A stretch of DNA of 64,000 nucleotides. It comes from an archaeon. GTDB lineage: Archaea; Nanobdellota; Nanobdellia; SCGC-AAA011-G17; PNOQ01. This document shows, one piece after another, positions 34,102 through 56,230 of the stretch. The translations under genes and the position numbers were made by a program. The stretch lies in contig JABHIB010000008.1 in assembly GCA_018671245.1 (NCBI GenBank), positions 6,284-70,283 of the forward strand, in the 5' to 3' direction. Each line of letters begins with the position of its first letter. Positions within the stretch are counted from its first letter, which is position 1. The notes under the pieces were generated by a model. The model was not told the DNA's origin. It searched no databases and saw only the letters and a list, made by a program, of their open reading frames with translations.

Positions 34102-35390
34102 TTTACGGAAACTGTGAATTTGTAAATAAAAAATACAAACCAAAAAAAACCGATCTAATTGTAATGTACAGAGTAGAACCAATAAAAGGAGTCTCTCTAG
34201 AAAGAATCTGCGAACTACTAGCAGGAGAATCATCAATAGGCACCTGGACAAAGATTTCTACAATGAATCCAAAAATAGCCAAAAGCTTGAAACCTAGTGC
34301 ATTCTACATAAATAAGAAAAAGAACTTAGTAAAAATAGCATATCCTGAGAAACTATTCGAAAAAAAGAATATGTCGGGCATACTCTCTTCAATTGCAGGA
34401 AACATATATGGGATGAAAGAAGCAAAAAAACTGCGATTAGAGGACATAACCTTCCCAAAAAGCATAATAAAATCATTTCCAGGACCAAAGTATGGAATCA
34501 AGGGTGTTAGGAAAATTTCAAAGGTTAAGAAGAGACCTTTGATAGGAACAATAGTAAAGCCAAAAATCGGGTTAACCGAAAAACAACATGCAAAGGTAGC
34601 TTATGAATCCTGGATAGGAGGATTAGATGTAGTAAAGGATGATGAAAATCTAACTTCGATGGAATTTAATAATTTCTACAAAAGAATAAATCTAACTTTC
34701 AAAGCTAGAGATAAGGCAGAAAAGAAGACTGGAGAGAAAAAGATCTATTTACCAAACATAACTGCAGAGTATGAAGAGATGAAAAAGCGTGCAGAACATG
34801 TAAAAAAGAAAGGTGGAGAATTTGTTATGATAGATATCTTAACAGTAGGTTGGAGCGCACTAGCATCTATGAGAAAGGTTACAAATAAACTGAAATTAGC
34901 AATTCACGCACATAGAGCAATGCACGGAGCACTAACAAGAGATCCAAAACACGGAATATCGATGTTAACACTAGCAAAAATTTCTAGATTGATGGGAGTA
35001 GATCAACTCCACATAGGAACTGCAGGAATAGGTAAAATGCACGGCTCAGCATCAGAAGAACTATCAATAGAAGAAGAGATAGAAGAACAAAAGATTAAAG
35101 CAAATCCTAAAACTAATAGATTAGAACAAAACTGGTATGGTATGAAACCAGTATTAGCAGTAGCTTCTGGAGGAGTTTCGCCCTTACAAATTTCAGAAAT
35201 AGTAAAAACCATGGGAACTGATATTGTAATTCAAGCAGGAGGTGGAGTTCACGGCCACCCTAATGGAACAGAATCAGGAGCAAGAGCGATGCGTCAAGCT
35301 ATTGAAGCAACTATGAAAAAAATTCCACTAAAAAAATACTCAAAAACACACAAAGAATTAGAACAAGCTTTTGACAAATGGAAAAACTAG
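34098..35390 (+). CDS. rbcL: Ribulose-bisphosphate carboxylase large subunit, form III-type
   Basis: 430 aa. Catalytic motifs are TIVKPKIGL, GGLDVVKDDENL (carbamylated Lys), HAHRAMHGA and GGGVHGHPNG. No small-subunit gene is present. Confidence 0.85.
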   Translation: MIYGNCEFVNKKYKPKKTDLIVMYRVEPIKGVSLERICELLAGESSIGTWTKISTMNPKIAKSLKPSAFYINKKKNLVKIAYPEKLFEKKNMSGILSSIAGNIYGMKEAKKLRLEDITFPKSIIKSFPGPKYGIKGVRKISKVKKRPLIGTIVKPKIGLTEKQHAKVAYESWIGGLDVVKDDENLTSMEFNNFYKRINLTFKARDKAEKKTGEKKIYLPNITAEYEEMKKRAEHVKKKGGEFVMIDILTVGWSALASMRKVTNKLKLAIHAHRAMHGALTRDPKHGISMLTLAKISRLMGVDQLHIGTAGIGKMHGSASEELSIEEEIEEQKIKANPKTNRLEQNWYGMKPVLAVASGGVSPLQISEIVKTMGTDIVIQAGGGVHGHPNGTESGARAMRQAIEATMKKIPLKKYSKTHKELEQAFDKWKN

Positions 35391-38158: not shown

Positions 38159-39160
38159 ATGAAATTAACAGATTATAAAAAATATTTAGTTATAGCAATA
38201 ATTTCAATGTTACTATTCTTATCTTACAAAATAGTTTCATCATTTGTATCTTCACTAATAGTTGCAGTAATTCTAGCGATAATTTTCAATCCACTTTACA
38301 AGAGAATACGCAAACTAGTTAAGAAAAAAGTAATAGCTTCCGGAATAACAATTTTCCTTATATTCTTAATCTTAATCATACCTTTATTATTCCTAACAGG
38401 ACCAATAATCAGAGAAACAACCACTATTCAGAATACATTCAATCAACTAGATTTCACTTCACTCTCTCAAAAAATACAGGATATAACTCACACTGGAGTA
38501 AACCTTAATACATACGCAAAAAGTTATTCTGCGAAACTATCGGGATTCTTTATTAATGCAACATCGAATATTTTCTTAACAGTAATGAGTGGAATACTCT
38601 CCATATTCATAGTAGGTTTTACAATGTTCTTTATCTTCATGAACAGCCCAGCAATACTAAGAAAAATTAGAGAACTGATCCCATTAAACAGGGAAAAGAA
38701 AAACAGACTATTCAAAGATATTCAAAATACAACTAATGGGATTATTTTCGGATTAGTTATTTCAGGAATGCTCCAAGGTATTGCAGGAGCAATAGGTTTC
38801 TTTATACTAGGAATACCAAACGCAATATTCTGGGGAATCATAATGACTATCTTAGCTATTTTACCAGCAATAGGAGCAACAGCAATCTGGGTTCCAACAT
38901 CTATATATCTCCTTGCTACAGATAGCATGGTTAGAGGAGTGCTACTATTCTTATATGGACTTTTCATAATCAGTTCAATAGAAAACATACTAAAACCAAA
39001 ATTAATAGGAAGAAAGGCAAATATCCATCCAATAGTAATACTACTTGGATTACTTGGAGGGCTGAAAGTCTTTGGATTTGCAGGACTTCTGATAGGACCT
39101 TTAATTCTATCATTACTAGTAGTATTTTATAGAACAATTGAAGATAAAAATGAAACTTAA
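38159..39160 (+). CDS. AI-2E family transporter (PerM/UPF0118)
   Basis: About 333 aa with 7-8 TMs. The C-terminal motif IENILKPKLIG..ANIHPIVILLGLLGG is typical of the family. The track start is GTG (38153), so I used ATG 38159. Confidence 0.65.
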   Translation: MKLTDYKKYLVIAIISMLLFLSYKIVSSFVSSLIVAVILAIIFNPLYKRIRKLVKKKVIASGITIFLIFLILIIPLLFLTGPIIRETTTIQNTFNQLDFTSLSQKIQDITHTGVNLNTYAKSYSAKLSGFFINATSNIFLTVMSGILSIFIVGFTMFFIFMNSPAILRKIRELIPLNREKKNRLFKDIQNTTNGIIFGLVISGMLQGIAGAIGFFILGIPNAIFWGIIMTILAILPAIGATAIWVPTSIYLLATDSMVRGVLLFLYGLFIISSIENILKPKLIGRKANIHPIVILLGLLGGLKVFGFAGLLIGPLILSLLVVFYRTIEDKNET

Positions 39161-40622
39161 AGTAAAAGATGTGAATCTCTCAACAGGTGGACCGTTGATT
39201 GTAATTCTGAATTATAAAGATGCAAAAAAATTAGACATTCATAGTGGAGACAGAGTTCTATTAAAAAAAGGGAGAAAAGAGATTATAGCTGCACTGAATG
39301 TATCTGAGATTTCAAGAAGTATAAAGCACAAAGAGATAGGATTATTAGAAGAGGTAATGGAAGTACTAAAAATCAAAAAGGGCGAGGAATTGGAACTAAA
39401 GCCTACCCACACACCAGCTTCAATAGAGTTTATTAGAAAAAAACTAGATGGTGAAAAACTTTCTAAAAAAGAAATTAAAATTATAGTAAAAGATATGACT
39501 GAAAACGATCTAACCGATGTAGAACTAGCATATTTTGTTTCGGCTTGCTACAAAAACAGACTATCTCATGATGAAGTCGAAAATCTAACTAAAGCAGTTT
39601 TAGAAAATGGAGAAAAAATAAAATTAGGAAAAAAGATTATCGCAGATAAACACTGTTTGGGAGGAATACCAAATAATAGAACAACTATGTTAATCACTCC
39701 AATACTTGCAGCCGCAGGACTAACTATTGCTAAAAGTTCATCAAGATCAATAACCAGTGCAGCAGGTACTGCAGACACTATGGAAGTTCTTTCCAAAATT
39801 GCATTTACTCCAGAAAAAATAAAAAAGATAGTAAAAAAAGCCAACGGATGTATAATATGGGGTGGAGCAATGGAACTGGCAGGAGCAGATGATAAACTAA
39901 TAAAAGTCAGATACCCATTAAGACTAGATCCTGAGGGTTTAATGATATCTTCAATACTTGCAAAAAAAGCAAGTGTGGGATCAACACATGTTTTAATAGA
40001 CATCCCAATAGGAGAAACAGCAAAAATAAATTCTAAGAAAAAAGCTAAAAGTCTAAAAAGAAAATTCATCCATTTAGGAAAAAGATTGGGAATGAATATC
40101 AAGGTTATAATCACAGATGGTTCACAACCAATAGGAAACGGAATAGGTCCAAACCTTGAAGCCAGAGATGTGTTATATATCTTAAGAAGAGATAAAAAAG
40201 CTCCAAAAGATCTAGAGAAAAAATCAATAATGATGGCTGACAAAATCTTCAAATTAACAAAAACTAAAGCATCTGCAAAAATAATTTTAGAATCAGGACT
40301 AGCCTATACAAAGATGAAAGAAATTATAAGATTACAAAATGGTAAGTCTTCAATAAAACCAGAAGATATAGAACTAGCAAAGTACTCATATAATGTTAAA
40401 TCCACTCGAAGAGGAAAAGTATCATTCATAGACAATAAAAAAATAACAAAGGTAGCAAGAATAGCAGGAGCGCCAGAAGATAAGAGAGCTGGAGTTTACC
40501 TTTACAAACATCTGAAAACCAAAGTTAAGAAAAATGAAATTCTTTATACTATTTATTCAGATTCTGAAGATAAATTGAAATATGCTAAAGCAATTTCTAA
40601 AGACTCTGTGAAAATTAGTTGA
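39150..40622 (+). CDS. AMP phosphorylase (archaeal thymidine-phosphorylase family, DeoA-like)
   Basis: About 490 aa. The N-terminal extra domain MKLKVKDVNLSTGGPLIVILNYKDAKKLDIHSGDRV is characteristic of AMP phosphorylases. The core has HCLGGIPNNRTT and SSRSITSAAGTADTME. Confidence 0.8.
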   Translation: MKLKVKDVNLSTGGPLIVILNYKDAKKLDIHSGDRVLLKKGRKEIIAALNVSEISRSIKHKEIGLLEEVMEVLKIKKGEELELKPTHTPASIEFIRKKLDGEKLSKKEIKIIVKDMTENDLTDVELAYFVSACYKNRLSHDEVENLTKAVLENGEKIKLGKKIIADKHCLGGIPNNRTTMLITPILAAAGLTIAKSSSRSITSAAGTADTMEVLSKIAFTPEKIKKIVKKANGCIIWGGAMELAGADDKLIKVRYPLRLDPEGLMISSILAKKASVGSTHVLIDIPIGETAKINSKKKAKSLKRKFIHLGKRLGMNIKVIITDGSQPIGNGIGPNLEARDVLYILRRDKKAPKDLEKKSIMMADKIFKLTKTKASAKIILESGLAYTKMKEIIRLQNGKSSIKPEDIELAKYSYNVKSTRRGKVSFIDNKKITKVARIAGAPEDKRAGVYLYKHLKTKVKKNEILYTIYSDSEDKLKYAKAISKDSVKIS

Positions 40623-40631
40623 AAAGTAGTT

Positions 40632-41579
40632 TCAATACACACAATAATCATCAACTATAATCATCCCTGGTTCTGGGCAACAATATTCAGACCCTTTAAC
40701 TTCATACCATCCGTCAGAACATTCAGATTCCTCTTCTTCAAAAAAATTTGGGAAATTACAATCTCCTGGGACAGTACCATTAGAATAAGTATACATTAAA
40801 CAAGAAATATATTCTTCATCAATCTTAGTTATTTTACATTTTCTTGAAGAATCGGCAGAATAGGGAAACATGATACTATTAGTTTTAGGATTATGAGAGA
40901 TATCAAAAAGATGGAGTATCTCATGAACTTCGAGAACAGGATATCCTGTTGAACAGATAGCGCCTTGGCCATAAAACTCTATTTTCCCCTTAAGTATCAA
41001 ATTTTTTGAAAGATCTAATTCAGACTTAGTTGCAACCCCGAGGGCATATTCTCCCGAACGGTCATAAACTGAAGGTTTGAAATATATTGAAATATCTGGA
41101 TCTTCAATAACTTCTCTAAACCAAATTATTTCAGAAGTTTCATCTTCAACTTTTTTAAAAGCAGACCTTGTCAAATTAACCTGCCTACTATAATTACTTT
41201 CAAAATCATAATTCTCAAATTTATAAGTAATAGGCATGTGACTCCAGTGCAAAATTTGAGCATTTGAAAAATTATCAGTTTCTTCGAACTCGCCATCCGA
41301 AGAAAAATTATCATAAGATTCATTCATGACATCAATAGGAATATCATCACCAGATATAAAACCAATAATAACTGAACTAAATAAAATAAAACAAATAATG
41401 GACCCTAAAACAATTCCAACAATAGCCATACTTTTTCCACCAATTTTTTTATTTTTATTTATCTTATTTAATGCGATTATTCCAAAAATTATTGCTAAGA
41501 TTGCACCAATTATAGTAATGCCAAATATTCCTAAAACTAATGATGCTATTGCAAATCCAGTAGTACGAGATTTAGACAT
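40632..41579 (-). CDS. Membrane-anchored metzincin-like zinc metalloprotease with Cys-rich C-terminal tail
   Basis: It has an N-terminal double-TM anchor (GFAIASLVLGIFGITIIGAILAIIFGIIALNKI, DUF4190-like). It has HEILHLFDISH (HExxHxxxxxH) followed by SIMFP (a Met-turn candidate). The tail is CNFPNFFEEEESECSDGWYEVKGSEYCCPEPG..DDYC. The track start (41678) overlaps tRNA-Ser, so I moved it to ATG 41579. Confidence 0.6.
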   Translation of the reverse strand: MSKSRTTGFAIASLVLGIFGITIIGAILAIIFGIIALNKINKNKKIGGKSMAIVGIVLGSIICFILFSSVIIGFISGDDIPIDVMNESYDNFSSDGEFEETDNFSNAQILHWSHMPITYKFENYDFESNYSRQVNLTRSAFKKVEDETSEIIWFREVIEDPDISIYFKPSVYDRSGEYALGVATKSELDLSKNLILKGKIEFYGQGAICSTGYPVLEVHEILHLFDISHNPKTNSIMFPYSADSSRKCKITKIDEEYISCLMYTYSNGTVPGDCNFPNFFEEEESECSDGWYEVKGSEYCCPEPGMIIVDDYCVY

Positions 41580-41628
41580 GAGAAAAAAATGAACTTTCAG
41601 ATATATAAAACTAACTAAAAATATAAAA

Positions 41629-41711
41629 CGCCGCAACTGGGATTTGAACCCAGATGCCCTTGCGGGCCCGGCTTTCAAGGCCGGTGCAATACCAGGTTAT
41701 GCGATCGCGGC
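41629..41711 (-). tRNA. tRNA-Ser (anticodon UGA), no intron
   Basis: Hand-folded. Acceptor is GCCGCGA/TTGCGGC (one G-U) and the anticodon arm is CCGGC-CTTGAAA-GCCGG. The long variable arm is GCCC-GCAA-GGGC and the T-arm is CTGGG-TTCAAAT-CCCAG. Confidence 0.85.
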
Positions 41712-41756
41712 ATAATAAAAAATAAAAGAAGTTCCACCTTTTTAAAATCTTCTGAT

Positions 41757-42996: not shown

Positions 42997-45363
42997 TTAC
43001 TCTACACTTATTGCGTCAACAGTTAGACCAGTTCCAGAAACTGAAACTAATTCTTTACCAGACAATGCAAATGCACTAGGATTAGCTGCAACTACTGCTG
43101 CTCTCTTAGTATCATCAACACTCCATCCAGCTACAACCATAGCTACGTTGTCACCATTCTCAAACATCTTTAGGTAACCAACATTCTCAGAGTAACCTGA
43201 ATCCAATCCACATGAACCTGCACCTACACCTTCAAAAGAAGCTGTTAAGCTGTTTACACAAGGTCCACCTACAAGGATTAAGTTGTAATCTGCTGCAGTT
43301 GTTACTTGGCTGTCGTCTAAGATAGCTGCACTTGTTGATTCAGTTGTTGCTGCACTTGATGAGATATAAACTCCAGCTGAAACTTCATCACCATGGTATA
43401 TCAATTCTACACTATTTTGACCTGAACTAGGCTTACTCTCCAAAATTTCAGTTGCAAGTGCAGAGTATGTGAAATCTCTCCAAATATCTGTATTACCAAT
43501 TTCTACAGCAGTAACATCAGCAACTTCAGTACTATACGTGCTAACTTCAACTTCAGGAGTTGTAGATGAATCCCAACCAATAGTTAGATTTATCTGATCA
43601 CCATCTGCATGTGCCTTGTTACCATTTTTATCTTCCTCATTTGTTACTAAATAAAAACTAGTAGCATTATGACCAACTCCTGCTCCAGCATCAGTAAAAT
43701 TTACTGCACCTGGCGCAGCACTAGTATTTGCAGCTAAAAATGGTAATTGGACTTTAAATCCTTCTTTTGACCAAAGTTCATTGAAGTTAGTGTTAGCACT
43801 ATTGTTTGTTAAAACAACAGTTCTCGTACTACCAGCCTTAGCAACCGTAGTAACACTAAGATCTACATTTCCAACAGAAAATGTATCTGCATCTTTAGCA
43901 CCAGTCTTCGCATCTACCCACGAACCATCTTTGTAATATTGGAAATCTGTTTTATTATTAGATCCATCAATCACAAAATTTGTTGCCTTCATCAAATAAG
44001 ACTCAGCATCACTATCGTCAGTCCAAGATGCAACAAAGTAATCATCAGTAGATGCATCAAAAGTAAGAGCTGCACCATCTGCTGCAGTAACTAGCCTGTT
44101 ATTAGCATCTTTACCAAATCCTGCAAATGCTTCTGAAGTAGTCGCATACAAAAAGTTAATATCTGCAACACCACTCTTTAATGGAAAATCTTCAAGAGTA
44201 GCATATAAGTCTCCACCCTGTTGAACTAAAATACTTTCTTCTACAGGATAAACTAACCCATCATAAGACATAGATACTGCCCCAAATCCTGGCATAGTTA
44301 TCATAGTGTCCTCAGTAATAAATAAGTCTTCATCAGCATTCCACTCAATAACCATATTAGTTAATTTTCCAGTTGAACTAGTCCATGCACCGGTCGAATT
44401 AGTAAAATAAGCTGAAAGTCCTGAAATAGACTCGTCATTAAGTTTTATTTCTGACCCGCCTGTAAGAGTTAACTTTCCAGAACCAATACTAAATTCTACC
44501 TTGCTAATACCAGAATCTCTAGAATCATACATTATATCTTTAATTCCGACATATGCTTCATCACTCAATTTATATGTCTCTCCTTCCTGTAAACTATTAG
44601 TTATTTCTCCATTAACTGTCAACTTTACTTCAGTAGCACTGATATAATCTACACTAGAAAGATAACTAACTCCTCCAGAAACCAAAGTACTAGATTCACC
44701 CTCTGATAAGATTGTATCTTCAGCAGAATCTAAAAGTGTCAACACAAGATTAGTACTTGATGTAGAATTACTCAACACATAATAATCATCACCCATAAAT
44801 GGGAAATTAGTAGTTGATAAGTCCATAACTAAAGGTTCATCACTAAAATCAAGTGTATAATTTAACACATTTTCTCCTGATGCGATTCTGACACCTAATG
44901 TAGGAGAATCTGCCTTATAATCATTATCGTCGAACATACTTACTTCAACAGACACACCAATTTCAATTTTTTGAGTGTAATCAAACTCGTCATTGTCATT
45001 GTCAATAAATTTACCACTTACTAAAAGTTCCGGCAATTCATCATCGTCAAGACTAGATGTTATCACTTCTGTGACATTATCACCTAAATGGAATTTAGTT
45101 GATGTTTTTTCAAATTTGTAAGAATCTCCGTCTCCACTAACAGTTGTAGCAGTTGCTAAACCATTCATATATGTCTGTATTGTACTTCTTGCATCAGCAT
45201 CGTCAGAACCAGCACCAATAACCATTGCTACGTTTACGTAAGCATCGGAAGCCACAAAAGGCTCAGGTAAAGTTCCTAAATCAGCTGCAAGAGCACCTGT
45301 CATTGTAGCTCCAAGCATGGCTATACCAGTACCCACAGCTGCAATTTGTTTTATAAATTTCAT
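42997..45363 (-). CDS. S-layer protein (Methanococcales-type S_layer_N/S_layer_C architecture)
   Basis: About 788 aa, acidic and Thr/Ser-rich. The signal peptide is MKFIKQIAAVGTGIAMLGATMTGALA. The mature N-terminus is ADLGTLPEPFV..VNVAMVIGAGSDD and the C-terminal motif is DYNLILVGGPCVNSLT. The track start (GTG 45375) lies inside the Shine-Dalgarno sequence, so I used ATG 45363. Confidence 0.75.
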   Translation of the reverse strand: MKFIKQIAAVGTGIAMLGATMTGALAADLGTLPEPFVASDAYVNVAMVIGAGSDDADARSTIQTYMNGLATATTVSGDGDSYKFEKTSTKFHLGDNVTEVITSSLDDDELPELLVSGKFIDNDNDEFDYTQKIEIGVSVEVSMFDDNDYKADSPTLGVRIASGENVLNYTLDFSDEPLVMDLSTTNFPFMGDDYYVLSNSTSSTNLVLTLLDSAEDTILSEGESSTLVSGGVSYLSSVDYISATEVKLTVNGEITNSLQEGETYKLSDEAYVGIKDIMYDSRDSGISKVEFSIGSGKLTLTGGSEIKLNDESISGLSAYFTNSTGAWTSSTGKLTNMVIEWNADEDLFITEDTMITMPGFGAVSMSYDGLVYPVEESILVQQGGDLYATLEDFPLKSGVADINFLYATTSEAFAGFGKDANNRLVTAADGAALTFDASTDDYFVASWTDDSDAESYLMKATNFVIDGSNNKTDFQYYKDGSWVDAKTGAKDADTFSVGNVDLSVTTVAKAGSTRTVVLTNNSANTNFNELWSKEGFKVQLPFLAANTSAAPGAVNFTDAGAGVGHNATSFYLVTNEEDKNGNKAHADGDQINLTIGWDSSTTPEVEVSTYSTEVADVTAVEIGNTDIWRDFTYSALATEILESKPSSGQNSVELIYHGDEVSAGVYISSSAATTESTSAAILDDSQVTTAADYNLILVGGPCVNSLTASFEGVGAGSCGLDSGYSENVGYLKMFENGDNVAMVVAGWSVDDTKRAAVVAANPSAFALSGKELVSVSGTGLTVDAISVE

Positions 45364-45374
45364 ATTAAAATTCA

Positions 45375-45381
45375 CACCTCC
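45375..45381 (-). promoter_or_regulatory. Shine-Dalgarno sequence GGAGGTG for the S-layer gene
   Basis: The minus strand reads GGAGGTG-tgaattttaat-ATG. This is the clearest SD I noticed in the window. Confidence 0.6.
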
Positions 45382-45488: not shown

Positions 45489-45498
45489 TTTTATAAAC
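45489..45498 (-). promoter_or_regulatory. Candidate TATA box (GTTTATAAAA) for the S-layer gene, implying a ~100-nt leader
   Basis: It is the best TTTAWAWA-like match in the 201-nt intergenic region. Other A/T-rich candidates exist closer to the gene. Confidence 0.3.
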
Positions 45499-45564: not shown

Positions 45565-45987
45565 CTACTTTCTACACAAAATAGCCCTAATTTCGTACCC
45601 ACCGGGGATAAAAACGCTACTAGAACCCACTCCTTCACTACAATCACCGACGACAGGAAGACATTCAGCACCGCCAGAGAATTTTAACTCAAACCCTACA
45701 TTTTCATCAACCATCGAATTAAGAGTGGCATTCACAAAATCACCAACCTTCAAACAATCAATCGAATTCCCATCACAACAACTAATAGCAAGAGTTTCGA
45801 AACTCACAGGGCCCAAATCAGCACGATAAATAGCATTAACTAAATTATCAATTTTAACACTATAATAAACATCCAGATCTCTCCCACTATCTTCACGAGA
45901 ACCCAATTTAAAAGCAATTAGACCAATAACTATAATCAAAAATACAATAATAACTAATCCTATCATCTCTATCTGACCCTTCTTCAT
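45565..45987 (-). CDS. Class III signal peptide (type IV pilin-like) protein, 140 aa
   Basis: The N-terminus is MKKGQ-IEMIGLVIIVFLIIVIGLIAF. There are 7 Cys in the mature part. It has an ATGA overlap with the upstream gene. The track start is GTG (45999). Confidence 0.6.
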   Translation of the reverse strand: MKKGQIEMIGLVIIVFLIIVIGLIAFKLGSREDSGRDLDVYYSVKIDNLVNAIYRADLGPVSFETLAISCCDGNSIDCLKVGDFVNATLNSMVDENVGFELKFSGGAECLPVVGDCSEGVGSSSVFIPGGYEIRAILCRK

Positions 45988-46427
45988 TCTAAACACCACC
46001 TCACTTTAAGTTCAGAAACAGAATTTCTCTTAATACTAGGATCATACAAACTTACAGGACTACTAATTACTCTCTGTTCAGAGCAGGAAACAAAATCTGA
46101 ATAAATCACATACTCCATCCCAGACCTTGTAAAACTAATCCTCTTATCCTTAAACAATTTATAATCAGAAACACTCGAATTGAATGCCAAAAGTTTCAAC
46201 CAATCAAGACACTCGTCCTCGTGCATTAGATGAGAACATTTAAACTCTGCCATATTCGGAATAACTTCTATCAACTGTCTGAATCTAAACTCTTCATATT
46301 CATTAGCAGAATTTTCTATACCTTTGAAAGTTGAGTTGTAGAAAAAAACCATACCAATCAATATTAAAATCATCACTAAAAAAATAACAATTATACTCTC
46401 TTGCATCTGCATCTGTCCACGCTTCAT
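45984..46427 (-). CDS. Class III signal peptide (type IV pilin-like) protein, 147 aa
   Basis: The N-terminus is MKRGQ-MQMQESIIVIFLVMILILIGMVFF. It abuts the stop of the upstream gene. Confidence 0.6.
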   Translation of the reverse strand: MKRGQMQMQESIIVIFLVMILILIGMVFFYNSTFKGIENSANEYEEFRFRQLIEVIPNMAEFKCSHLMHEDECLDWLKLLAFNSSVSDYKLFKDKRISFTRSGMEYVIYSDFVSCSEQRVISSPVSLYDPSIKRNSVSELKVRWCLE

Positions 46428-47264
46428 CTAGAAAACCACCTCACATTCAAAATTACTCAGTGCCAAGTTCTCAGATTCAAGAGCGCTAGAATCATCAACA
46501 CTTAAACTACCTAAAGCAGAGATAATAGGAGAATAATTACAGCCGCCTAAGTTCTGTGCCTTATACAAATAACTCGATTTCATAAACTCAAATCTCTCAA
46601 TCAATTTATCATAATTACACTTATACTGAAAAGCATCATTAGAAAAAATTGCAGCATAAATAAATTCGTCAGAGTGGTGTGAAAACTCCGAACCTTCCTC
46701 GACAAACTTAACAGAAGATGAACTAACTACTATCTCACTACCCGGATAAATATTACCAACATCAATAGGAAGAACAACAACATCAGCATCCGAAGGATTG
46801 CTAACAATCAAAAACTTTTCTTCCATCAAAGAACTGAGTGAAGCAAACGAAGGATCAAAATAATACTTCCTAGAAACATCACTAACATAAACAAAATTAT
46901 CAACTCTAAACGGAGCATACCAACTCTTGCTCCAGATAACATAATCACTAGACAAAGCATTGCTTCCAAAAACAATACCAAACACTCTCAAACTAACATC
47001 ATCATTAATCCAAAAAGTACTACAGTCATCAAGATCGAAAAATAATTTAAAAGGAGGAATATTAGGACTATAGGATAAATACTGCTCACTACTTTTTGCA
47101 CTAGTTACAAGGTTGTTAAAATTTCTAGCTATAGCAGCACTCTCTTTAGTTTCTTGTAGATCCATATACTTAACACCAAATCCCATAAAGAACATGAAAA
47201 TAATCATTCCTGCAAACACTGCGAATACCCAACTGAACTGAGCACCCTGACCTCTTTTATCCAT
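46428..47264 (-). CDS. Class III signal peptide (type IV pilin-like) protein, 278 aa
   Basis: The N-terminus is MDKRGQ-GAQFSWVFAVFAGMIIFMFFMGF. Confidence 0.55.
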   Translation of the reverse strand: MDKRGQGAQFSWVFAVFAGMIIFMFFMGFGVKYMDLQETKESAAIARNFNNLVTSAKSSEQYLSYSPNIPPFKLFFDLDDCSTFWINDDVSLRVFGIVFGSNALSSDYVIWSKSWYAPFRVDNFVYVSDVSRKYYFDPSFASLSSLMEEKFLIVSNPSDADVVVLPIDVGNIYPGSEIVVSSSSVKFVEEGSEFSHHSDEFIYAAIFSNDAFQYKCNYDKLIERFEFMKSSYLYKAQNLGGCNYSPIISALGSLSVDDSSALESENLALSNFECEVVF

Positions 47265-47343
47265 AACCTAAAAATCGAATCAGAAGTTTAAATAATTTGT
47301 GTTATATCACAAAGATAAAATTCACAGATTTTGAAATTAATAC

Positions 47344-47832
47344 CTATATTAATCTAGCAATAATCTCAGTTCCATTATTAAAAAACTTAACATCAAAACT
47401 GCCATCGAAAGTAACATCACATAGAGGGCTACTCTCTAAAACAAGAAGAGGAATAAAACCATAGCTCAATTCATCTCCAGAGAAATAAACATTATCACTA
47501 CTACCGTGACTAGAAGTAATATTCATATAAGTTGCAAGAGTCTCATCCAAAACAGAGCTAAAATCCTGCTCCAAAGAATGATCAATTATACAGATCTCAT
47601 CAATCCCAGAAGGAATAGATATAGAGTTAGCATAAACAACACTACCATAATTATCGCTATAAACCTGATCAACTTTACCTTCTAGATCACTAATAAAAAC
47701 ACTATACTCTACACTATCTCCACTATCAATAACTCCAGCTATCCACTTAGCTCCTATCAATAATACAAGCACAGCTACAATGATATAGAATAAATAAATA
47801 AATGGTTGGCCTAATATCTGTCCTCGTTTCAT
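47344..47832 (-). CDS. Class III signal peptide (type IV pilin-like) protein, 162 aa
   Basis: The N-terminus is MKRGQ-ILGQPFIYLFYIIVAVLVLLIGAKW. It has an ATGA overlap with the giant gene's stop. Confidence 0.6.
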   Translation of the reverse strand: MKRGQILGQPFIYLFYIIVAVLVLLIGAKWIAGVIDSGDSVEYSVFISDLEGKVDQVYSDNYGSVVYANSISIPSGIDEICIIDHSLEQDFSSVLDETLATYMNITSSHGSSDNVYFSGDELSYGFIPLLVLESSPLCDVTFDGSFDVKFFNNGTEIIARLI

Positions 47833-50800
47833 GGATAGATTGTAAAGCTCCCTATATTATCAAAATCATCTTGACACTTAATGTAATAAACATTAGATCC
47901 TAGAGGAGCATAATGAACTAACCTATCAAAACCTGAAGACTGCATAGCATTTCCCTCTGTTTCGAACGCAAAATTAGAAACTTCATTATCATACTTACAA
48001 TTAGCTGCCTCATTCAATACAAGATATAAATAATTTTGACCAGTATAGATACTCAAAGGTTCTGGCACATCTTCATCAGACACAACATAAAATGCAGAAC
48101 TAGCACTCACTATATTATCTGCAATATCCTCACAACTAACAACAAGATTATGTAAAGTTCCGAAAGGACTTCCACTCAAAATCTCAGAATGTTCTAAAAC
48201 AAAACTAGGTCCAGCAACCTCATCGAATTCATAACTCTGACCATCCAAAGTATAGCTACACATTGTTCCACCAATCACACTCTCTGCAAACACTTGAATT
48301 AAAGGTGTTGAATCGTAAGTTAAATTCCCATCGGCAGGACTATCTATAGTAACATTGAAAGTAGGTACAATATTAAAAGATGCATTCAATGAATCAAACT
48401 GAAGATTTCCTTGGACAAGACCTTCATTACCACTATTATCTTTACATGCAAACTGATACAAATAAGTTTCAACTCCATCAAATTCAAGATCAGGAGCTCC
48501 ACTAAATACTAGATTTGTATTAAATATCTGACAATCCGTACTCTCGCTTCCAGGACAAGAAATCGGAGTTCCTCCACTAAATGAATTTTCCATAGTAGCA
48601 TACTCAGAGTTATCTTGAGAATATTTACATCCAGCTACACCATTTGAAATGTCTCCAACAATAATATTCCAGTTAACAGAGTTTGTACCTTCAGGTCTAT
48701 ATATTCCATTAGGCGGACTCATACTCAAAAACACAGGAGGTAAATAATCAGGCCTATCTCCGAACTTAACCTGTACGGAATAATAATCTTCACTAACTCC
48801 TTGATGATTTTCACTTAAATCTTCACACTTAATATAATAAGTAGCACCGCCACCCTCCTTATCAGACTCACCAAGATCAAACAAAATATCATTATTAAAT
48901 GGGAAATCAGATCTACTAAATAGAGTCATTTCACTGTACTCCATTCCACTAGCATCACCATATCTACAATTAGCCCTCTCAGATTCACCAGCATCATTAG
49001 TTGTATTGACACTTATCTTAATTGAACCTACATCTTCCCAATCATAAACTCCAGAAAGAGGAGCAATTAAATTATTCATATTATTGCTCTCAACACTCTC
49101 TAAATATTCAACATAATTACCTTCTAAATCATAAACATCTAACCTAATATAACTTACATGTGGCTCTTCTGCATCTCCAGAATCAATCGCAACACACGCA
49201 CCATTTCCAGGTTCATCATTATTTTGTATATACACGCAGTGATCATTATCTGCACCAAGAATATTACATCTATCCTCGCTACATTCCCACTGTCCTTCTG
49301 GTCCACCACATTGCCAACAGTGATCATTATTAGTATATGATTGTTCAGGAACACAACTTCCAGCATTAACACCTTCAGCAAGTTGATATATAGTGTACAT
49401 AATTCCCAAAGTTCTCAAAGCAGTATTCATGAAACTTCCAGACTCTGCAGCAACCTCATCAGAAACACTCTCAGTAAACTCATCAGTTATCCCATCTAAA
49501 TAATAATCATTATTAGGATTAACAATTTCCCAATCACCCGGACCTACTTGCACTCCATCAGCACCAAAATTAGAAACATAAGAAGAACCATATTGAGTAG
49601 AATAATCACTGACCACACCATTTGCAGCATCAAATGCTTCTTGACCACTTAATCCACTAACAGCACCAAGTATATCTCTACCCAGAGATCTTTGAATGAA
49701 AAATCTTCCAATAGCTACAGAACTCATCGCACCTTCAGAACTAAGAAGCAATCTAGCAATATCAACAATTCCTTCACCTAGATCAAACCTTCCACCTGTA
49801 GAAACCTCACTAGCCTCAAGAACTCCCTCATCATTAAAAGTTTTAGCCATAGCGAGAGTCTTAGCTAAATCTGCTTTGCCATCATCAGTCTCAGCAGAAA
49901 AATCATACTGTTCAACCTCAGCATTAACACGTTCAACATATCCACCAACACTACCTACAACTCCCCAAAATAAACTATTACCAAACATGGACCAAATAGT
50001 CTGACCAACACCGCTCAAAAATCCAGCATTATTAGGATCACAGAATGGAGCAATCTGACAGATAACATACATACCTACAGCAGTACCTACAGCAGTACCT
50101 ACAACACCACTCGCAGCATTAACAAGAGATTCCCAATTAGCACCTTCAGGAATAAAATCACAATCACCAATTAAATTACACTCTTGTTCAGTACAAATAT
50201 TAGTATAAGGATCACCACCAGCACCACAAATATTACATCTTTCTTCTAAAGCACTATCAGCAACATGCGGAGAATACTCAGGTTTAGGATTACAAGAACC
50301 CAGAGGAGACCATGCAAAATCATGATCATAATCACAAAGTTTTAACCCTTCAGCATTCTCAATATTTTCACAATCATCAGGACTACAATACTCTCCAACT
50401 AGAGGAAGTACAAGATTTCTACCAATTCCAGGAAGATAACCAAAAACATCTATCAAATGTCTTGCCTCTCCACACTCAAAACAAGCATCAGCACCATTAG
50501 TTATGAATTTGGCATTTCTTCTATCAAACTCACCAAAATCTTTTACAGTGCTTATACAAATTTTTTCACCATGAGCATAATCTTCAATAGCCTCAACTTC
50601 ACCATTCTGACATTCCAAAATATACTCTTTCAAAAACTTACTTTTCTGATCACTAGAAAAAGAACCACTATACATAGTTAAACAAAGCTGCTCGCCATTC
50701 TTAAATTCTATAGGATCGCAATCAGGACAATCAGGAACACACGCAGTAGTTATACACTCTGCATCCTCGCTGCCTCCATCTCCATCAGAATCAAAACAAG

Positions 50801-51524
50801 TGTAATCAGGATAACCACAATCATCAATAAGATCATCTCGGTTTCCATCACTATCATACCAAAATAATTTATGAATATCTCCTTCTTCAAGAGATCCACA
50901 ATTCAAACTAGTGTGACCATCAGAATCACTTAACCTAGCCGAACAAGAACTAACAGAGCTACACTCTGTATTAGCATGCCACATAATAGGATTGACACAC
51001 TGACTATTAAAATTAAATTCACAGCTACCTGCCATCTCACAACAACCAACTTGATTATCAACACACTCATTATCACAAACAGCATTATTAGTAATCATAG
51101 AATCGTGTTCACCAGAACAAATATTTTCTTCAACAACATTACAAAGGCCATTACTTTCACAACAACCTAATTTACATGCCTGAACATTTTCTTTTGGTTG
51201 AGCATAAGGAGTTCCGCCCTCTGCACTACACTGAACTCTAGGATAATTAGAAAGACATGTACCAACAGCAGGAACACAAGTATCTAGTTCGCAACTATCA
51301 TCACCATAACTACCTAAATCAGAACAGCTAGTATACTCAGCAAAACTATCACAAACACCTACATCCGCAACATCAACACAATAATCTCCATTTGGATGAG
51401 TAATACAACATCCATCTGCTGCATAAACAGGTTCACTCTCAAGAACTATTGCAAGATTAAAGATAGCAAAAATTACCAAAGCAGAAAGAAATACACTAAT
51501 CCCTTTTTTATGATTAACTAACAT
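47829..51524 (-). CDS. Giant (~1231 aa) cysteine-rich surface/membrane protein of unknown function
   Basis: The N-terminus is MLVNHKKG-ISVFLSALVIFAIFNLAIVL..VYA-ADGCC. I counted about 62 Cys by hand, about 44 of them in the first ~460 aa. There is a central Gly-rich hydrophobic pair and four C-terminal Cys-framed modules. The track start is TTG (51542), so I used ATG 51524. Confidence 0.7.
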   Translation of the reverse strand: MLVNHKKGISVFLSALVIFAIFNLAIVLESEPVYAADGCCITHPNGDYCVDVADVGVCDSFAEYTSCSDLGSYGDDSCELDTCVPAVGTCLSNYPRVQCSAEGGTPYAQPKENVQACKLGCCESNGLCNVVEENICSGEHDSMITNNAVCDNECVDNQVGCCEMAGSCEFNFNSQCVNPIMWHANTECSSVSSCSARLSDSDGHTSLNCGSLEEGDIHKLFWYDSDGNRDDLIDDCGYPDYTCFDSDGDGGSEDAECITTACVPDCPDCDPIEFKNGEQLCLTMYSGSFSSDQKSKFLKEYILECQNGEVEAIEDYAHGEKICISTVKDFGEFDRRNAKFITNGADACFECGEARHLIDVFGYLPGIGRNLVLPLVGEYCSPDDCENIENAEGLKLCDYDHDFAWSPLGSCNPKPEYSPHVADSALEERCNICGAGGDPYTNICTEQECNLIGDCDFIPEGANWESLVNAASGVVGTAVGTAVGMYVICQIAPFCDPNNAGFLSGVGQTIWSMFGNSLFWGVVGSVGGYVERVNAEVEQYDFSAETDDGKADLAKTLAMAKTFNDEGVLEASEVSTGGRFDLGEGIVDIARLLLSSEGAMSSVAIGRFFIQRSLGRDILGAVSGLSGQEAFDAANGVVSDYSTQYGSSYVSNFGADGVQVGPGDWEIVNPNNDYYLDGITDEFTESVSDEVAAESGSFMNTALRTLGIMYTIYQLAEGVNAGSCVPEQSYTNNDHCWQCGGPEGQWECSEDRCNILGADNDHCVYIQNNDEPGNGACVAIDSGDAEEPHVSYIRLDVYDLEGNYVEYLESVESNNMNNLIAPLSGVYDWEDVGSIKISVNTTNDAGESERANCRYGDASGMEYSEMTLFSRSDFPFNNDILFDLGESDKEGGGATYYIKCEDLSENHQGVSEDYYSVQVKFGDRPDYLPPVFLSMSPPNGIYRPEGTNSVNWNIIVGDISNGVAGCKYSQDNSEYATMENSFSGGTPISCPGSESTDCQIFNTNLVFSGAPDLEFDGVETYLYQFACKDNSGNEGLVQGNLQFDSLNASFNIVPTFNVTIDSPADGNLTYDSTPLIQVFAESVIGGTMCSYTLDGQSYEFDEVAGPSFVLEHSEILSGSPFGTLHNLVVSCEDIADNIVSASSAFYVVSDEDVPEPLSIYTGQNYLYLVLNEAANCKYDNEVSNFAFETEGNAMQSSGFDRLVHYAPLGSNVYYIKCQDDFDNIGSFTIYP
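50072..50107. repeat. In-frame 12-nt tandem repeat (tacctacagcag x2 plus one degenerate copy)
   Basis: Read directly from the sequence. It encodes the GTAVGTAVG part of the first hydrophobic segment of the giant protein. Confidence 0.8.
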
Positions 51525-52360
51525 AGTTTCAACAAGACACAAAATCTTACGTCCTCTCCTCCCTCAACAGGTATATCAACATACTGAAATTCTTCACAGG
51601 CATTCAAGCCATTACTACTAAATGTTAATTGATTGGCATAATTTATCTCTCCTGCTGAATAACTATATCCATAGCCAGAAAAAGGTATACCATTAATATT
51701 ACAAAATAAATTATAATCAGGATATCCAGAATAATCTCCACTATAACAACTAACGATTGCATTTCCTGCTCTCAAAGCTCTTCCCACAGGAATTTCAACT
51801 ACCGCTAAAAGACTATCTATATTTCCAACATAATCTCCTCTACTTAATTCAATAGGATAACTAATCGACTGCTTCAAACCATTGTCTGTTACTAACGGAG
51901 CTTCTAAAACCATTTCACTAATCTCATTAATAGAAAGTCCCACTCCTTCAAAAGAATTAAACACCTCATCAATACAACTATCAAGATCTAAATCTTCTTC
52001 CATGAAATTTCTAATTTCATTACCAACTCTTTCAACACTCGGTAAATAAGTTCGAGGAATACTGCCATCATAAGCAAAAGCAATATTGGTATCGTTCCAA
52101 GAAAGGCTGATCTCATCCAAAGGAGAATTTATTCCGCCTCTCAACATCACATGTCTTGCAGCTCTAAGCAAACTCTCTTCAGCACAAGATTCAATCCCAA
52201 ATCTAACAGGTTCAATCTGTGCAGAAACGAATCTCTCAGCCTCTTCTCCAGTCAACTCATCAGGAAAAATATTGCCACGTAACTGAAAAAGAAGTCCTAC
52301 AATAGCCAAAACAACAATACCTAAGATAATAAAAATCGTCACCTGTCCTCTTTTATTCAT
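51518..52360 (-). CDS. Class III signal peptide (type IV pilin-like) protein, 280 aa (first gene of operon)
   Basis: The N-terminus is MNKRGQ-VTIFIILGIVVLAIVGLLFQL. The mature part contains Cys. Its 3-prime end overlaps the giant gene's ATG by 7 nt. Confidence 0.6.
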   Translation of the reverse strand: MNKRGQVTIFIILGIVVLAIVGLLFQLRGNIFPDELTGEEAERFVSAQIEPVRFGIESCAEESLLRAARHVMLRGGINSPLDEISLSWNDTNIAFAYDGSIPRTYLPSVERVGNEIRNFMEEDLDLDSCIDEVFNSFEGVGLSINEISEMVLEAPLVTDNGLKQSISYPIELSRGDYVGNIDSLLAVVEIPVGRALRAGNAIVSCYSGDYSGYPDYNLFCNINGIPFSGYGYSYSAGEINYANQLTFSSNGLNACEEFQYVDIPVEGGEDVRFCVLLKLC

Positions 52361-52382
52361 AGGACGGAAATGTTAAAAGAAA

Positions 52383-52390
52383 TTTATAAA
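52383..52390 (-). promoter_or_regulatory. Candidate TATA box (TTTATAAA) for the pilin-like operon; spacing predicts a leaderless mRNA
   Basis: 22 nt separate the box from ATG 52360, so the box centre is about 26 nt upstream of the A of the ATG. No SD is present. Confidence 0.4.
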
Positions 52391-53555: not shown

Positions 53556-54140
53556 TCATCTTAGTATCTCCACAAAAAAGATTTTGATCCAACCAAGGTA
53601 AGGCACTTTGAAAATTGATTTACCAATAACTCGTTCTTCACTAATCTCTGTCTCACCAAGCGAATCATAACTATCTCCGTTATTATCGCCTTTTGTTTTC
53701 AAAAACCACTCCTCTTCATCTTTCCACTTATCTACAACTCTATGGATTATAGGGTAGTGCGAATTTGATTGAAAAACAATTACATCTCCCCTATTTATAT
53801 CTTTCGATTTGGAGCCATACAGCACTATTATATCACCTTTATTGAATCCATTCTTAAAAATCCACTCAGAATAATCACCTTTAGTTATTCCCCGTTTCTC
53901 ATACCATCCTTTATTCTCTTCCCACCAAATCTCAGAACCAATTCCTTCATGTTCCATGCTTCCAGAAACAACAGCAACAACAGGATGACTAGTACCACCT
54001 AGAACTAATCCCAATCCAGGATAAATAAGAAACTTAACTAACACAAATGCAATAACAAGAGAAACTATCCATGAAGCAGGACTATCACTATACCATAGAA
54101 ATTTCCAGGTTTTTTTAAGAAGAGGTTTATATTTCTTCAT
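53556..54140 (-). CDS. Signal peptidase I, archaeal/eukaryotic S26B type
   Basis: It has a single N-terminal TM, SGSMEH (catalytic Ser box), IIHRVV (His box) and KGDNNGDS (GDNN box). The track start is GTG (54149), so I used ATG 54140. Confidence 0.8.
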   Translation of the reverse strand: MKKYKPLLKKTWKFLWYSDSPASWIVSLVIAFVLVKFLIYPGLGLVLGGTSHPVVAVVSGSMEHEGIGSEIWWEENKGWYEKRGITKGDYSEWIFKNGFNKGDIIVLYGSKSKDINRGDVIVFQSNSHYPIIHRVVDKWKDEEEWFLKTKGDNNGDSYDSLGETEISEERVIGKSIFKVPYLGWIKIFFVEILR

Positions 54141-54157
54141 CAAGTTCACCTAAACTA

Positions 54158-55573: not shown

Positions 55574-56230
55574 TTATAGAAAATACTCTATATCTTCAAG
55601 TTCAGCGAATCCACGAATAACATCGTCATTTATTACCATGCTCGGGAAGCTATCTATACCATATAATGACTTCAGAATTCCTACCTCTTCAGACTCAAGA
55701 TCATAATCAAATGAATACACTCTCACAGAGGAAGGGTTTTCACTTTTTATATAACCTAAAATGAAACCTTGTCTCTCACAATCATCACATAAGGTATTAC
55801 CTTGAGAATCTTCTTTATTGGAATAAAAGTACAGAATAAGGTCATAGTCTGAACCACATTTCTCTTTAATATTCTTATAATGTAACCAATCATAAATCTC
55901 TAAAAGAGTATAATACTTTTTCAAATCCTTAACTTTCTGATGATTCTTTCCGAGTTTAGTTTCTAATTGCATTATCTCTGCAGAAACATAACCAAACTCA
56001 TCCTTCACAAAAGAATCAAACTCATACTCACAAATTCTATCCTCAAGAAGGGCACTCCTTAATTCTAATCTAAACAAATCATATCTAGTCTCATCATTAA
56101 ATTTATCAACATGTTCAACAAACATTCGATCAGCAACCATACCAAATAAAAATGCAACAACAAAAATTAAACCAGTTATAACAAACGCTAGAATGTAATT
56201 CTTTTTTGTAACTGTTCTTTTAACTACCAT
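55574..56230 (-). CDS. Membrane-anchored thioredoxin-fold protein with CxxC (CDDC)
   Basis: It has an N-terminal basic stretch plus one TM (positive-inside implies an outside domain). The Trx-like order is LILYFYS - CDDC - .. - FPSMVIND (cis-Pro loop candidate). Its start overlaps the upstream GT2 gene's stop by 7 nt. Confidence 0.45.
   Translation of the reverse strand: MVVKRTVTKKNYILAFVITGLIFVVAFLFGMVADRMFVEHVDKFNDETRYDLFRLELRSALLEDRICEYEFDSFVKDEFGYVSAEIMQLETKLGKNHQKVKDLKKYYTLLEIYDWLHYKNIKEKCGSDYDLILYFYSNKEDSQGNTLCDDCERQGFILGYIKSENPSSVRVYSFDYDLESEEVGILKSLYGIDSFPSMVINDDVIRGFAELEDIEYFL

Follow-up and report, generated by a model that had tools for sequence, protein, structure and literature searches.

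A conserved operon of five pilin-like proteins and a giant cysteine-rich partner in DPANN archaea: a candidate surface filament and adhesin module

What kind of surface structure might be formed by five pilin-like proteins and one giant cysteine-rich protein whose genes are never found next to a filament motor? This question is raised by a six-gene operon on a stretch of 64,000 nucleotides of archaeal DNA (contig JABHIB010000008.1 of assembly GCA_018671245.1, positions 6,284 to 70,283, lineage Nanobdellota), the whole of which is called the window here. In this window a sequence-only reading had recognised five small proteins with class III (prepilin-type) signals, named P1 to P5 below, wrapped around a protein of 1231 residues, the giant. 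Here, we describe a computational follow-up of this operon. What is new is a very large unannotated family of pilin-like proteins, that of P1, which is confined, as sampled, to DPANN archaea (Diapherotrites, Parvarchaeota, Aenigmarchaeota, Nanoarchaeota, as well as Nanohaloarchaeota), the obligate pairing, duplication, splitting, and fusion of this family with the giant, and a six-gene set that is deeply conserved at a single place in the chromosome, away from motor genes. In all likelihood the product is a stalk or fibre on which an adhesin is displayed, which makes it a candidate for how uncultured symbionts hold other cells.

A six-gene operon with class III-type N-termini

The six open reading frames (ORFs) are co-directional on the minus strand between 45565 and 52360, each where the sequence-only reading had placed it, and independent gene calls on public contigs give the identical six products (Table 1). 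Sequence and ORF coordinates also bear out the tight junctions: P1 and the giant overlap by 7 nucleotides (51518-51524), ATGA overlaps join the giant to P2 (47829-47832) and P4 to P5 (45984-45987), and the stop of P3 abuts the start of P4 at 46428/46427.

Table 1. Positions of the operon genes and of the flanking features discussed in the text. A slash marks the predicted cleavage site.
Feature	Position in window	Strand	Description
P1	51518-52360	minus	280 residues; class III-type N-terminus MNKRG/QVTIFIILGI and alpha/beta head; partner of the giant
Giant	47829-51524	minus	1231 residues counted from ATG; 62 Cys
P2	47344-47832	minus	162 residues; class III-type N-terminus MKRG/QILGQPF
P3	46428-47264	minus	278 residues; class III-type N-terminus MDKRG/QGAQFSWVF
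P4	45984-46427	minus	147 residues; class III-type N-terminus MKRG/QMQMQES
P5	45565-45987	minus	140 residues; class III-type N-terminus MKKG/QIEMIGLV
TATA-like box TTTATAAA	52383-52390	minus	23-30 nucleotides upstream of the P1 ATG; assigned by position only
Archaeal signal peptidase I	53556-54149	minus	TIGR02228, 78.9 bits against a cut-off of 51.85
S-layer(-like) gene	42997-45375	minus	PF05124 S_layer_C, E 2.3e-10, 40.8 bits against a cut-off of 23.9

The five N-termini read as they had been quoted. All of P1-P5 begin with M-x(0-2)-[KR]-[KR]-G-Q followed by about 20 hydrophobic residues, their hydropathy peaks at 2.5-3.4 within residues 7-35, and no other ORF of the 64-kb window has [KR][GA]Q with a hydrophobic stretch directly behind a start codon. 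Prepilin-type peptidases require Gly or Ala at position -1. Syntenic orthologues of P1-P5 in 20 or more genomes have Gly at -1, or Ala in several distant genomes, Gln at +1 is nearly invariant, Lys or Arg stands at -2, and the leader comprises 4-8 residues, and the rest of each protein falls to 18-40% identity; the N-terminus of P1 is nearly invariant across 45 homologues. That Gly/Ala at -1 and Gln at +1 persist despite such divergence elsewhere upholds the class III assignment for these five proteins. The alignments of P1-P5 contain no conserved AxA after the helix and no C-terminal signal peptidase I (SPase I) site. Behind the predicted cleavage site each family has its own signature, namely QVTIFIILGI in P1, Q-x-x-GQPF in P2, QG-x-QFNW in P3, Q-x-Q-x-QE in P4 (with Q-x-Q-E retained in Woesearchaeota-type orthologues), and Q-x-E-x-x-GL in P5, where the acidic residue at +3 is Glu, or Asp in three orthologues. 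Profile-profile comparison finds the five families alike only over the first 30-55 residues, and the N-terminus is the only part common to P2 and P5 and likewise to P3 and P1. Judged by their sequences, the likeness of P1-P5 thus appears to be confined to the N-terminus, as it is among unrelated pilins, and the signals appear to be class III signals of the EppA type, after whose Gly the proteins would be cut. In Methanococcus maripaludis the pilin-specific peptidase EppA requires Gln at +1 for processing (PMC4390842). The Pfam model of archaeal class III signals, PF04021 (Class_IIIsignal/DUF361), matches none of P1-P5 at E <= 1, and its motif Q-x-S-x-E-x-x-x-L is absent from their alignments.

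The upstream signals of the operon are less simple than had been described. A TATA-like box, TTTATAAA, does lie upstream of P1, as the sequence-only reading had stated, but it is not the single box of the operon, as a second TATA-like element, TATTTAAA, stands ahead of P3 in the 79-nucleotide spacer between P2 and P3. Because of this second element the operon may be split into two transcription units. In the AT-rich window the TTTATAAA octamer occurs 12 times against 11.3 expected, which is chance level. Six of the 12 copies stand immediately ahead of genes, in short intergenic spacers (27056, 31714, 36071, 38121, 45490, and 52383), and this placement suggests that, despite the chance-level total, the octamer is the local TATA-box consensus; the copy at 52383-52390 is a candidate promoter of a leaderless P1 transcript.

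Searches with custom hidden Markov models (HMMs) recovered the gene order PCNA-P1-giant-(P1-giant)n-P2-P3-P4-P5-S-layer gene across metagenome-assembled genomes (MAGs) of Woesearchaeota, Pacearchaeota, and 'Nanoarchaeota', and seven neighbourhoods of giant or P1 homologues show the same order each time. The neighbourhood is thus strongly kept in related DPANN genomes, on which the sequence-only reading had made its interpretation depend. Upstream, the relatives share genes for an IleRS/LeuRS-type synthetase, eRF1, ScpB, a glycosyltransferase, a CxxC protein, a helix-turn-helix protein, (a methyltransferase), RpoL, signal peptidase I, TFS, and PCNA, and downstream of P5 the S-layer gene is followed by two small exported proteins. 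The adjacency to the S-layer gene, which the sequence-only reading had pointed out, is conserved, but as functional evidence it was down-weighted, since the adjacency to PCNA is equally strong. Scanning one genome per species with a P1 profile gave 80 loci, distributed over Woesearchaeota, Pacearchaeota, 'Nanoarchaeota/Nanoarchaeia', one Diapherotrites genome, and a few bins that are probably mislabelled. Among the latter are P1-family genes in MAGs named 'uncultured Methanosarcinales archaeon' with 29-39% G+C (loci L034, L039, L044, L046, L048, L072, and L076), which are probably DPANN bins whose taxonomic label is wrong. In some relatives, toxin-antitoxin modules and defence-type genes interrupt the run of operon genes; nucleotidyltransferase/HEPN, PIN/RHH, Fic, and AAA_14 inserts (L009, 14189-15206; L011, 14938-15732 and 17734-20015; a locus of JGI 3300072015) leave the order undisturbed.

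The P1 family is large and practically without annotation. An exhaustive HMMER search against clusters at 50% identity found 9,723 representative proteins at E <= 0.001, of which 3,035 remain at E <= 1e-30. No Pfam model covers the P1 domain in the 40 family members scanned, and the source names of family proteins read 'hypothetical protein' (n = 4). Pfam and NCBIfam scans of P1-P5 and the giant returned noise only, and PDB profile searches with P2, P3, P4, P5, and the giant gave nothing significant, the best pilin match being PilE1 over the N-terminus only (E 0.13-1.1). An AlphaFold2 model of P1 from a 45-sequence alignment reached a mean predicted local distance difference test score (pLDDT) of 89.5 and a predicted template modelling score (pTM) of 0.80. 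It has a helix at residues 4-29 and, after a break of low confidence (30-37), a 36-residue helix (38-73) packed with beta-strands, and an alpha/beta head. An N-terminal helix and a globular head, which the sequence-only reading had proposed to look for, are thus predicted for P1 with high confidence. This model is compatible with a pilin-like lollipop and leaves P1 a candidate for the pilin fold. Some P1 paralogues carry extensions of at least 400 residues, and some of these bear immunoglobulin (Ig)-like domains. A P1-family paralogue is also present on the closed 737-kb Woesearchaeota chromosome CP066683.1.

The giant protein and its pairing with P1

The giant is Cys-rich, as had been noted, with 5.0% Cys compared to roughly 1% in most other genes of the window. 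It is composed of a Sec signal (cleavage at about A35/A36), a Cys-rich domain, a central Gly-rich region, and a C-terminal Ig-like array. The Cys-rich domain occupies the N-terminal 430 residues or so, has repeated GCC motifs, and gave no detectable relatives in Pfam and PDB sequence searches. The central region (about 465-720) is variable and contains Gly-rich hydrophobic or helical segments. The C-terminal 450 residues or so form about four beta-sandwich Ig-like repeats with the motif C..Y..M...YYIKC.D..N, and in a fold search the matches to this array, at E 1e-9 to 1e-6, include cadherins, bacterial adhesins of large size, and the grappling-hook protein of Aureispira, so that the modelled array appears adhesin-like. 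The giant of the window itself has no match in Pfam, NCBIfam, or PDB sequences, and the repeats of some of its relatives match the Ig-like Pfam families Big_13, Y_Y_Y, and DUF4625. Word-indexed homologue searches found only seven proteins and missed known orthologues; the giant family became visible through custom HMMs on the retrieved loci.

All six N-termini of the operon had been put forward for class III signal prediction, and the assignment stands for P1-P5 and fails for the giant. The KKG of its N-terminus becomes RKS or KKRM in orthologues, and a small-x-small (AxA-type) site directly before the first Cys-Cys motif is conserved in them. Because KKG is not conserved and the small-x-small site is, the signal is a Sec/SPase I signal, and the giant as a sixth class III protein was ruled out. 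In most stand-alone orthologues the central region holds a hydrophobic hairpin of one to three segments with Kyte-Doolittle values up to 3.1, and the giant probably possesses such a membrane hairpin as well, with segments whose hydrophobicity in the window protein is only moderate (1.6-1.7).

Wherever a stand-alone giant was found in the loci examined, the gene ahead of it is P1 or, if the giant is split, its own N-terminal half. The pair occurs in tandem repeats at eight loci (L030, L035, L060, L062, L064, L070, L074, and L089), and these repeats precede a single P2-P5 set wherever the locus extends that far. In five proteins of 1057-1282 residues (P0106, P0108, P0166, P0172, and P0174), P1 continues colinearly into an entire giant. 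Over positions 1-253 these P1::giant fusions match the P1 profile with E-values of about 1e-47 to 1e-50, and they match a profile made from stand-alone giants only at 8e-65 to 2e-95, with additional support from BLASTP; a profile from the six closest giants missed them, but a broader profile detected them. The fusions lack the central hydrophobic region and skip that part of the giant profile. Because the pair is often duplicated in tandem and, in other lineages, fused into one polypeptide, the giant is tied to the pilin-like P1. Of the earlier proposal of a pilin-mounted giant, the link is borne out by translational coupling, tandem co-duplication, and fusion; the mounting would have to accommodate a giant with its own Sec signal and a probable hairpin. 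The giant would seem to need a membrane or fibre tether, provided by its own hairpin together with P1 or by direct fusion to the P1 helix.

The giant is encoded by two consecutive ORFs, split at the central hydrophobic region, at seven loci (L017, L021, L035, L062, L065, L074, and L080), and the second half begins with its own hydrophobic N-terminus in all four that were checked (L035, L062, L065, and L074). These could be real splits or assembly frameshifts.

Genomic neighbourhood and host

The same DNA is present on dozens of metagenomic contigs of up to 197 kb, among them one from a 200-m sample of Saanich Inlet and that of the MAG GCA_018693515.1; the 193-kb contig ERZ4200964 NODE_14 also carries the operon. 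The organism is a small marine DPANN archaeon of Woesearchaeota type. Its close relatives bear the label Candidatus Woesearchaeota, and the G+C content is 31%. The other genes of the window include those for SecDF and AglB/STT3, a large glycosylation island, and genes for PCNA, TFS, and translation. Form III RuBisCO, a ribose-1,5-bisphosphate isomerase-like gene, and AMP phosphorylase (32663-35390 and 39138-40622) make up the nucleotide-salvage (AMP-salvage) pathway typical of DPANN.

Several neighbours concern protein export. The signal peptidase I gene lies two genes upstream of the operon in all relatives; its Pfam S26 match in the window falls just under the cut-off, and the public gene calls carry no Pfam family for it. 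This peptidase likely processes the Sec signals of the giant and the S-layer protein. A TATA-like box at 45490-45497 belongs to the S-layer gene alone, and this gene is set off from the operon by a 190-nucleotide spacer, features which mark it as a separate transcription unit. A protein of 218 residues (55574-56230, minus strand), conserved in synteny, has an N-terminal membrane anchor and a C-terminal CDDC motif; its only family match is to thioredoxin, at a non-significant E of 0.14, and it may act on the Cys-rich exported proteins as an extracytoplasmic thiol-disulphide oxidoreductase.

The '11-gene run' of exported proteins described for this region consists of 10 protein genes and one tRNA-Ser. 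An ORF within it (40632-41712, minus strand) encodes DUF4190 and a matrixin (M10) metallopeptidase, and its listed TTG start overlaps the tRNA-Ser(TGA) at 41628-41712, because of which the true start must be further downstream; the public gene calls give a protein of 315 residues. About 8 kb past the window ends, one side holds ribosomal and tRNA genes and the other a second cluster of exported proteins with Sec signals. In this cluster (L096, 1-9891, just beyond the window start), the proteins are Cys-rich, carry ordinary Sec signals, and have no family assignments; it contains three small paralogues (132-159 residues) ending in CC[SN][VL], an incomplete protein of more than 990 residues, and a PKD protein of 849 residues that reaches into the window (1 to about 1945).

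Filament module, fixed stalk, or membrane anchors

We read the operon as the minor-pilin and adhesin module of a System-1/Epd-like type IV filament whose machinery is encoded elsewhere in the genome, and give this reading an even chance. The layout had been called unlike known loci, a claim that goes too far, as there is precedent in models of System-1/Epd-type pili with at least five minor pilins and large adhesins (PMC4858521; bioRxiv 10.64898/2026.04.22.720090). In the archaeal clade-1/System-1 model, Gln stands at +1 of the signals, and the pilin genes lie in other parts of the genome (PMC4858521; 10.64898/2026.04.22.720090). With System 1/Epd of Methanococcus maripaludis and relatives the operon shares Gln +1 class III signals, at least five minor-pilin-like genes accompanied by large proteins that resemble adhesins, exported components rich in Cys, and pilin genes that may be remote from the machinery (PMC4858521; PMC4390842). 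It differs in that the ATPase, the paired TadC genes, EppA, and the MinD-type ATPase of System 1 were found in or near none of 96 loci, in that it has no PF04021/DUF361 or DUF2341 PilY-like match and its globular domains are unrelated by sequence, and in that the giant carries a Sec signal and a central hydrophobic hairpin. In Pfam scans DUF2341 is absent from the giant and 30 relatives, some of which have Ig-like families instead. In bacteria, the FimU-PilV-PilW-PilX-PilY1-PilE operon sets minor pilins around a Sec-signal adhesin of about 1,100-1,200 residues that docks on a minor pilin. This module, as in Pseudomonas and Myxococcus, resembles the operon in its several minor pilins around a large Sec-signal non-pilin, by analogy only (also PMC4858521), but it is bacterial, the archaeal signals have Gln instead of Phe or Met at +1 and no Glu at +5, and the giant contains no vWA or beta-propeller domain and has no sequence or fold similarity to PilY1. 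The operon thus mirrors the System-1 and, as an analogy, the FimU-PilVWX-PilY1-PilE designs, and it is not a demonstrable member of either family. The P1::giant fusions and the P1 paralogues with Ig-like passengers would be comparable to bacterial modular pilins such as PilB and PilC of Streptococcus sanguinis, in which a pilin module is fused to a passenger (concept in PMC8179133), although P1 and the giant are separate genes in the window and the archaeal passengers are unrelated to the bacterial ones.

In a filament of this kind, P1-P5 would enter the membrane and be cut after Gly by a prepilin-type aspartyl peptidase (EppA-like), leaving Gln at +1, and their hydrophobic N-terminal helices would bundle into a short fibre or into the tip or priming complex of a type IV filament. 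The ATPase, the platform protein, the peptidase, and probably a small major pilin would be supplied from elsewhere in the genome. The giant would be exported through Sec, cleaved by signal peptidase I, and folded oxidatively outside the cell, and by docking on P1 it would display its adhesin-like Ig array at or beyond the S-layer. Contact with a host through such an array is a matter of speculation.

A number of results weigh against this reading. As the sequence-only reading had stated, Pfam listings of the gene calls contain no FlaI/PilB, FlaJ/TadC, or prepilin peptidase in the window, and the same holds for the listings of all the genome sequence covered, about 84 kb, in which assembly ATPase, platform protein, and prepilin peptidase are likewise absent. 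Neither was a T2SSE/FlaI ATPase, a TadC/FlaJ protein, or an A24-type peptidase found within 10 kb on either side of P1 in the 96 loci, which were covered by crude motif screens and spot Pfam checks over 1.57 Mb including overlaps. The ORFs with a T2SSE-type Walker A motif in these loci are SRP54/FtsY/AAA proteins only, no polytopic protein has a GxGD motif, and the multi-pass membrane proteins that were spot-checked belong to the SpoIIM, AI-2E, and Na/Ca exchanger families. The operon contains no obvious major pilin. The globular parts of P1-P5 match no known pilin in the Pfam PF04021 and PDB sequence searches and, for P1, by Foldseek, where nothing in PDB and BFVD fell below E 0.001 (best E 0.066), and the break at residues 30-37 parts the N-terminal helix of the P1 model from its head. 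The structure model of the giant, made from seven sequences, is poor (pLDDT 50), and its own Sec signal and hairpin suggest a permanently membrane-anchored protein and not the cargo of a fibre. According to a preprint, moreover, DPANN genomes lack the components of type IV pili (10.1101/2020.05.14.094862). On this point the literature is divided: annotated homologues of FlaI/J/K are on record for Woesearchaeota (PMC8407392), and System 1 type IV filaments have been reported in DPANN (10.64898/2026.04.22.720090). Pili go unmentioned in the comparative genomics of Woesearchaeota (PMC8421398) and of DPANN from oxygen-deficient zones (PMC10936187), with further DPANN literature likewise silent on pili and pilins. 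At L052 (4417-11409, minus strand), in another DPANN MAG from Saanich Inlet samples, a run of ten further class III-like genes adjoins a P1 paralogue; it includes proteins of 93-139 residues (..RKGQSNMFWIIIG.., ..KKAQSQMFWILMV..) that resemble major pilins, and the locus ends before any machinery gene.

The missing linked motor and the hairpin are better explained if P1-P5, cleaved or serving as anchors, form a short pseudopilus-like stalk between membrane and S-layer, to which the hairpin-anchored giant belongs as part of a fixed envelope complex, an arrangement that is the main rival of the filament and is possible, if on balance doubtful. The role of such a complex would be to tether the S-layer, to organise it, or to stand out from the surface as a fixed spike; the ArlF/ArlG stalk of the archaellum and the bindosome of Sulfolobus would be comparable. 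ArlF/ArlG (FlaF/FlaG) and the bindosome share with P1-P5 the pilin-like N-termini and, as proposed for the stalk, stay in the envelope and contact the S-layer instead of building long pili (PMC4425475; 10.64898/2026.04.22.720090), but they have no sequence similarity to them, are encoded together with ATPase and platform genes, and have no known giant partner. Archaeal class III signals do occur on envelope proteins that are not part of pili (bindosome, 10.64898/2026.04.22.720090; FlaF binding to the S-layer, PMC4425475). A fixed complex also fits a hairpin that is found in most stand-alone giants and in none of the fusions, which already have a pilin-type helix, and an operon that is found once per locus amid a conserved group of housekeeping genes, as a core part of the envelope would be, always adjoining the S-layer gene and two small exported proteins, with no assembly ATPase linked to it at any locus. 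That adjacency is no tighter than the one to PCNA, however, and may reflect frozen gene order, the S-layer gene has its own promoter-like box behind its spacer, and the hydrophobic segments of the window giant are of modest strength. The duplication and fusion of the P1-giant cassette and the varied Ig-like passengers of P1 paralogues look like those of diversifying adhesins. A fixed stalk accounts better for the hairpin and the absent motor and worse for cassette duplication and passenger diversity. Another reading is an attachment device specific to DPANN and independent of a classical type IV pilus motor, in which a pilin-like bundle in the S-layer carries the giant and the hairpin inserts into the membrane of a partner cell, which seems to us unlikely. 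Cryo-electron tomography (cryo-ET) of cultivated Nanobdellota has revealed an envelope-embedded attachment organelle with a filament, whose proteins are unknown (PMC11420986).

The same empty searches for peptidase and ATPase in the window, the 84 kb, and the 96 loci, together with heads that match no known pilin in sequence or fold and the reported lack of type IV pilus components in DPANN (10.1101/2020.05.14.094862), could also mean that the signals are uncleaved anchors and that the six genes encode membrane-tethered, lineage-specific envelope proteins unrelated to type IV filaments. We consider this decidedly unlikely, as a plain anchor needs only positive charges and leaves unexplained both the nearly invariant Gly/Ala at -1 with Gln at +1, kept through deep divergence in five unrelated families, and the very short leaders of 4-6 residues; the FlaI/J/K homologues of Woesearchaeota (PMC8407392) and the ten class III-like genes of L052, with their small pilin-looking products, speak against it too. 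Very unlikely, finally, is a transport pseudopilus similar to the Com pilus or the type II secretion system (T2SS), with one major and four minor pilins, that would take up DNA or host material or secrete proteins and to which the giant would be accessory. The bacterial Com (ComGC-GG) and T2SS (GspG-K) sets contain five pilin-like genes each. The operon equals them in this count, P5 is small and has an acidic residue at +3, comparable to the one often found at +5 of major pilins, and the organism is predicted to depend on imported metabolites from its reduced, AMP-salvage type metabolism in the window. Com and T2SS operons, however, include ATPase and platform genes, which are missing here, Pfam and NCBIfam scans reveal no DNA-binding or secretin-like feature, and the tight coupling of P1 to the giant and its Ig-like array point to surface binding.

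Among uncultured archaea, Woesearchaeota and Pacearchaeota rank with the most widespread, and the means by which they make contact with other cells are unknown. For these organisms the operon provides a concrete, conserved set of proteins, made up of an unannotated pilin-like family with thousands of members and its giant partner, and the fixed chromosomal position makes it easy to find in any MAG. The proteins named here are targets for proteomics, complex prediction, and cryo-ET. Should the giant insert into a partner membrane from a bundle in the S-layer, P1-P5 and the giant would be candidate components of the Nanobdellota attachment organelle. As a filament module, the operon could extend the catalogue of archaeal type IV filaments by a variant with structural genes that always lie apart from those of the motor.

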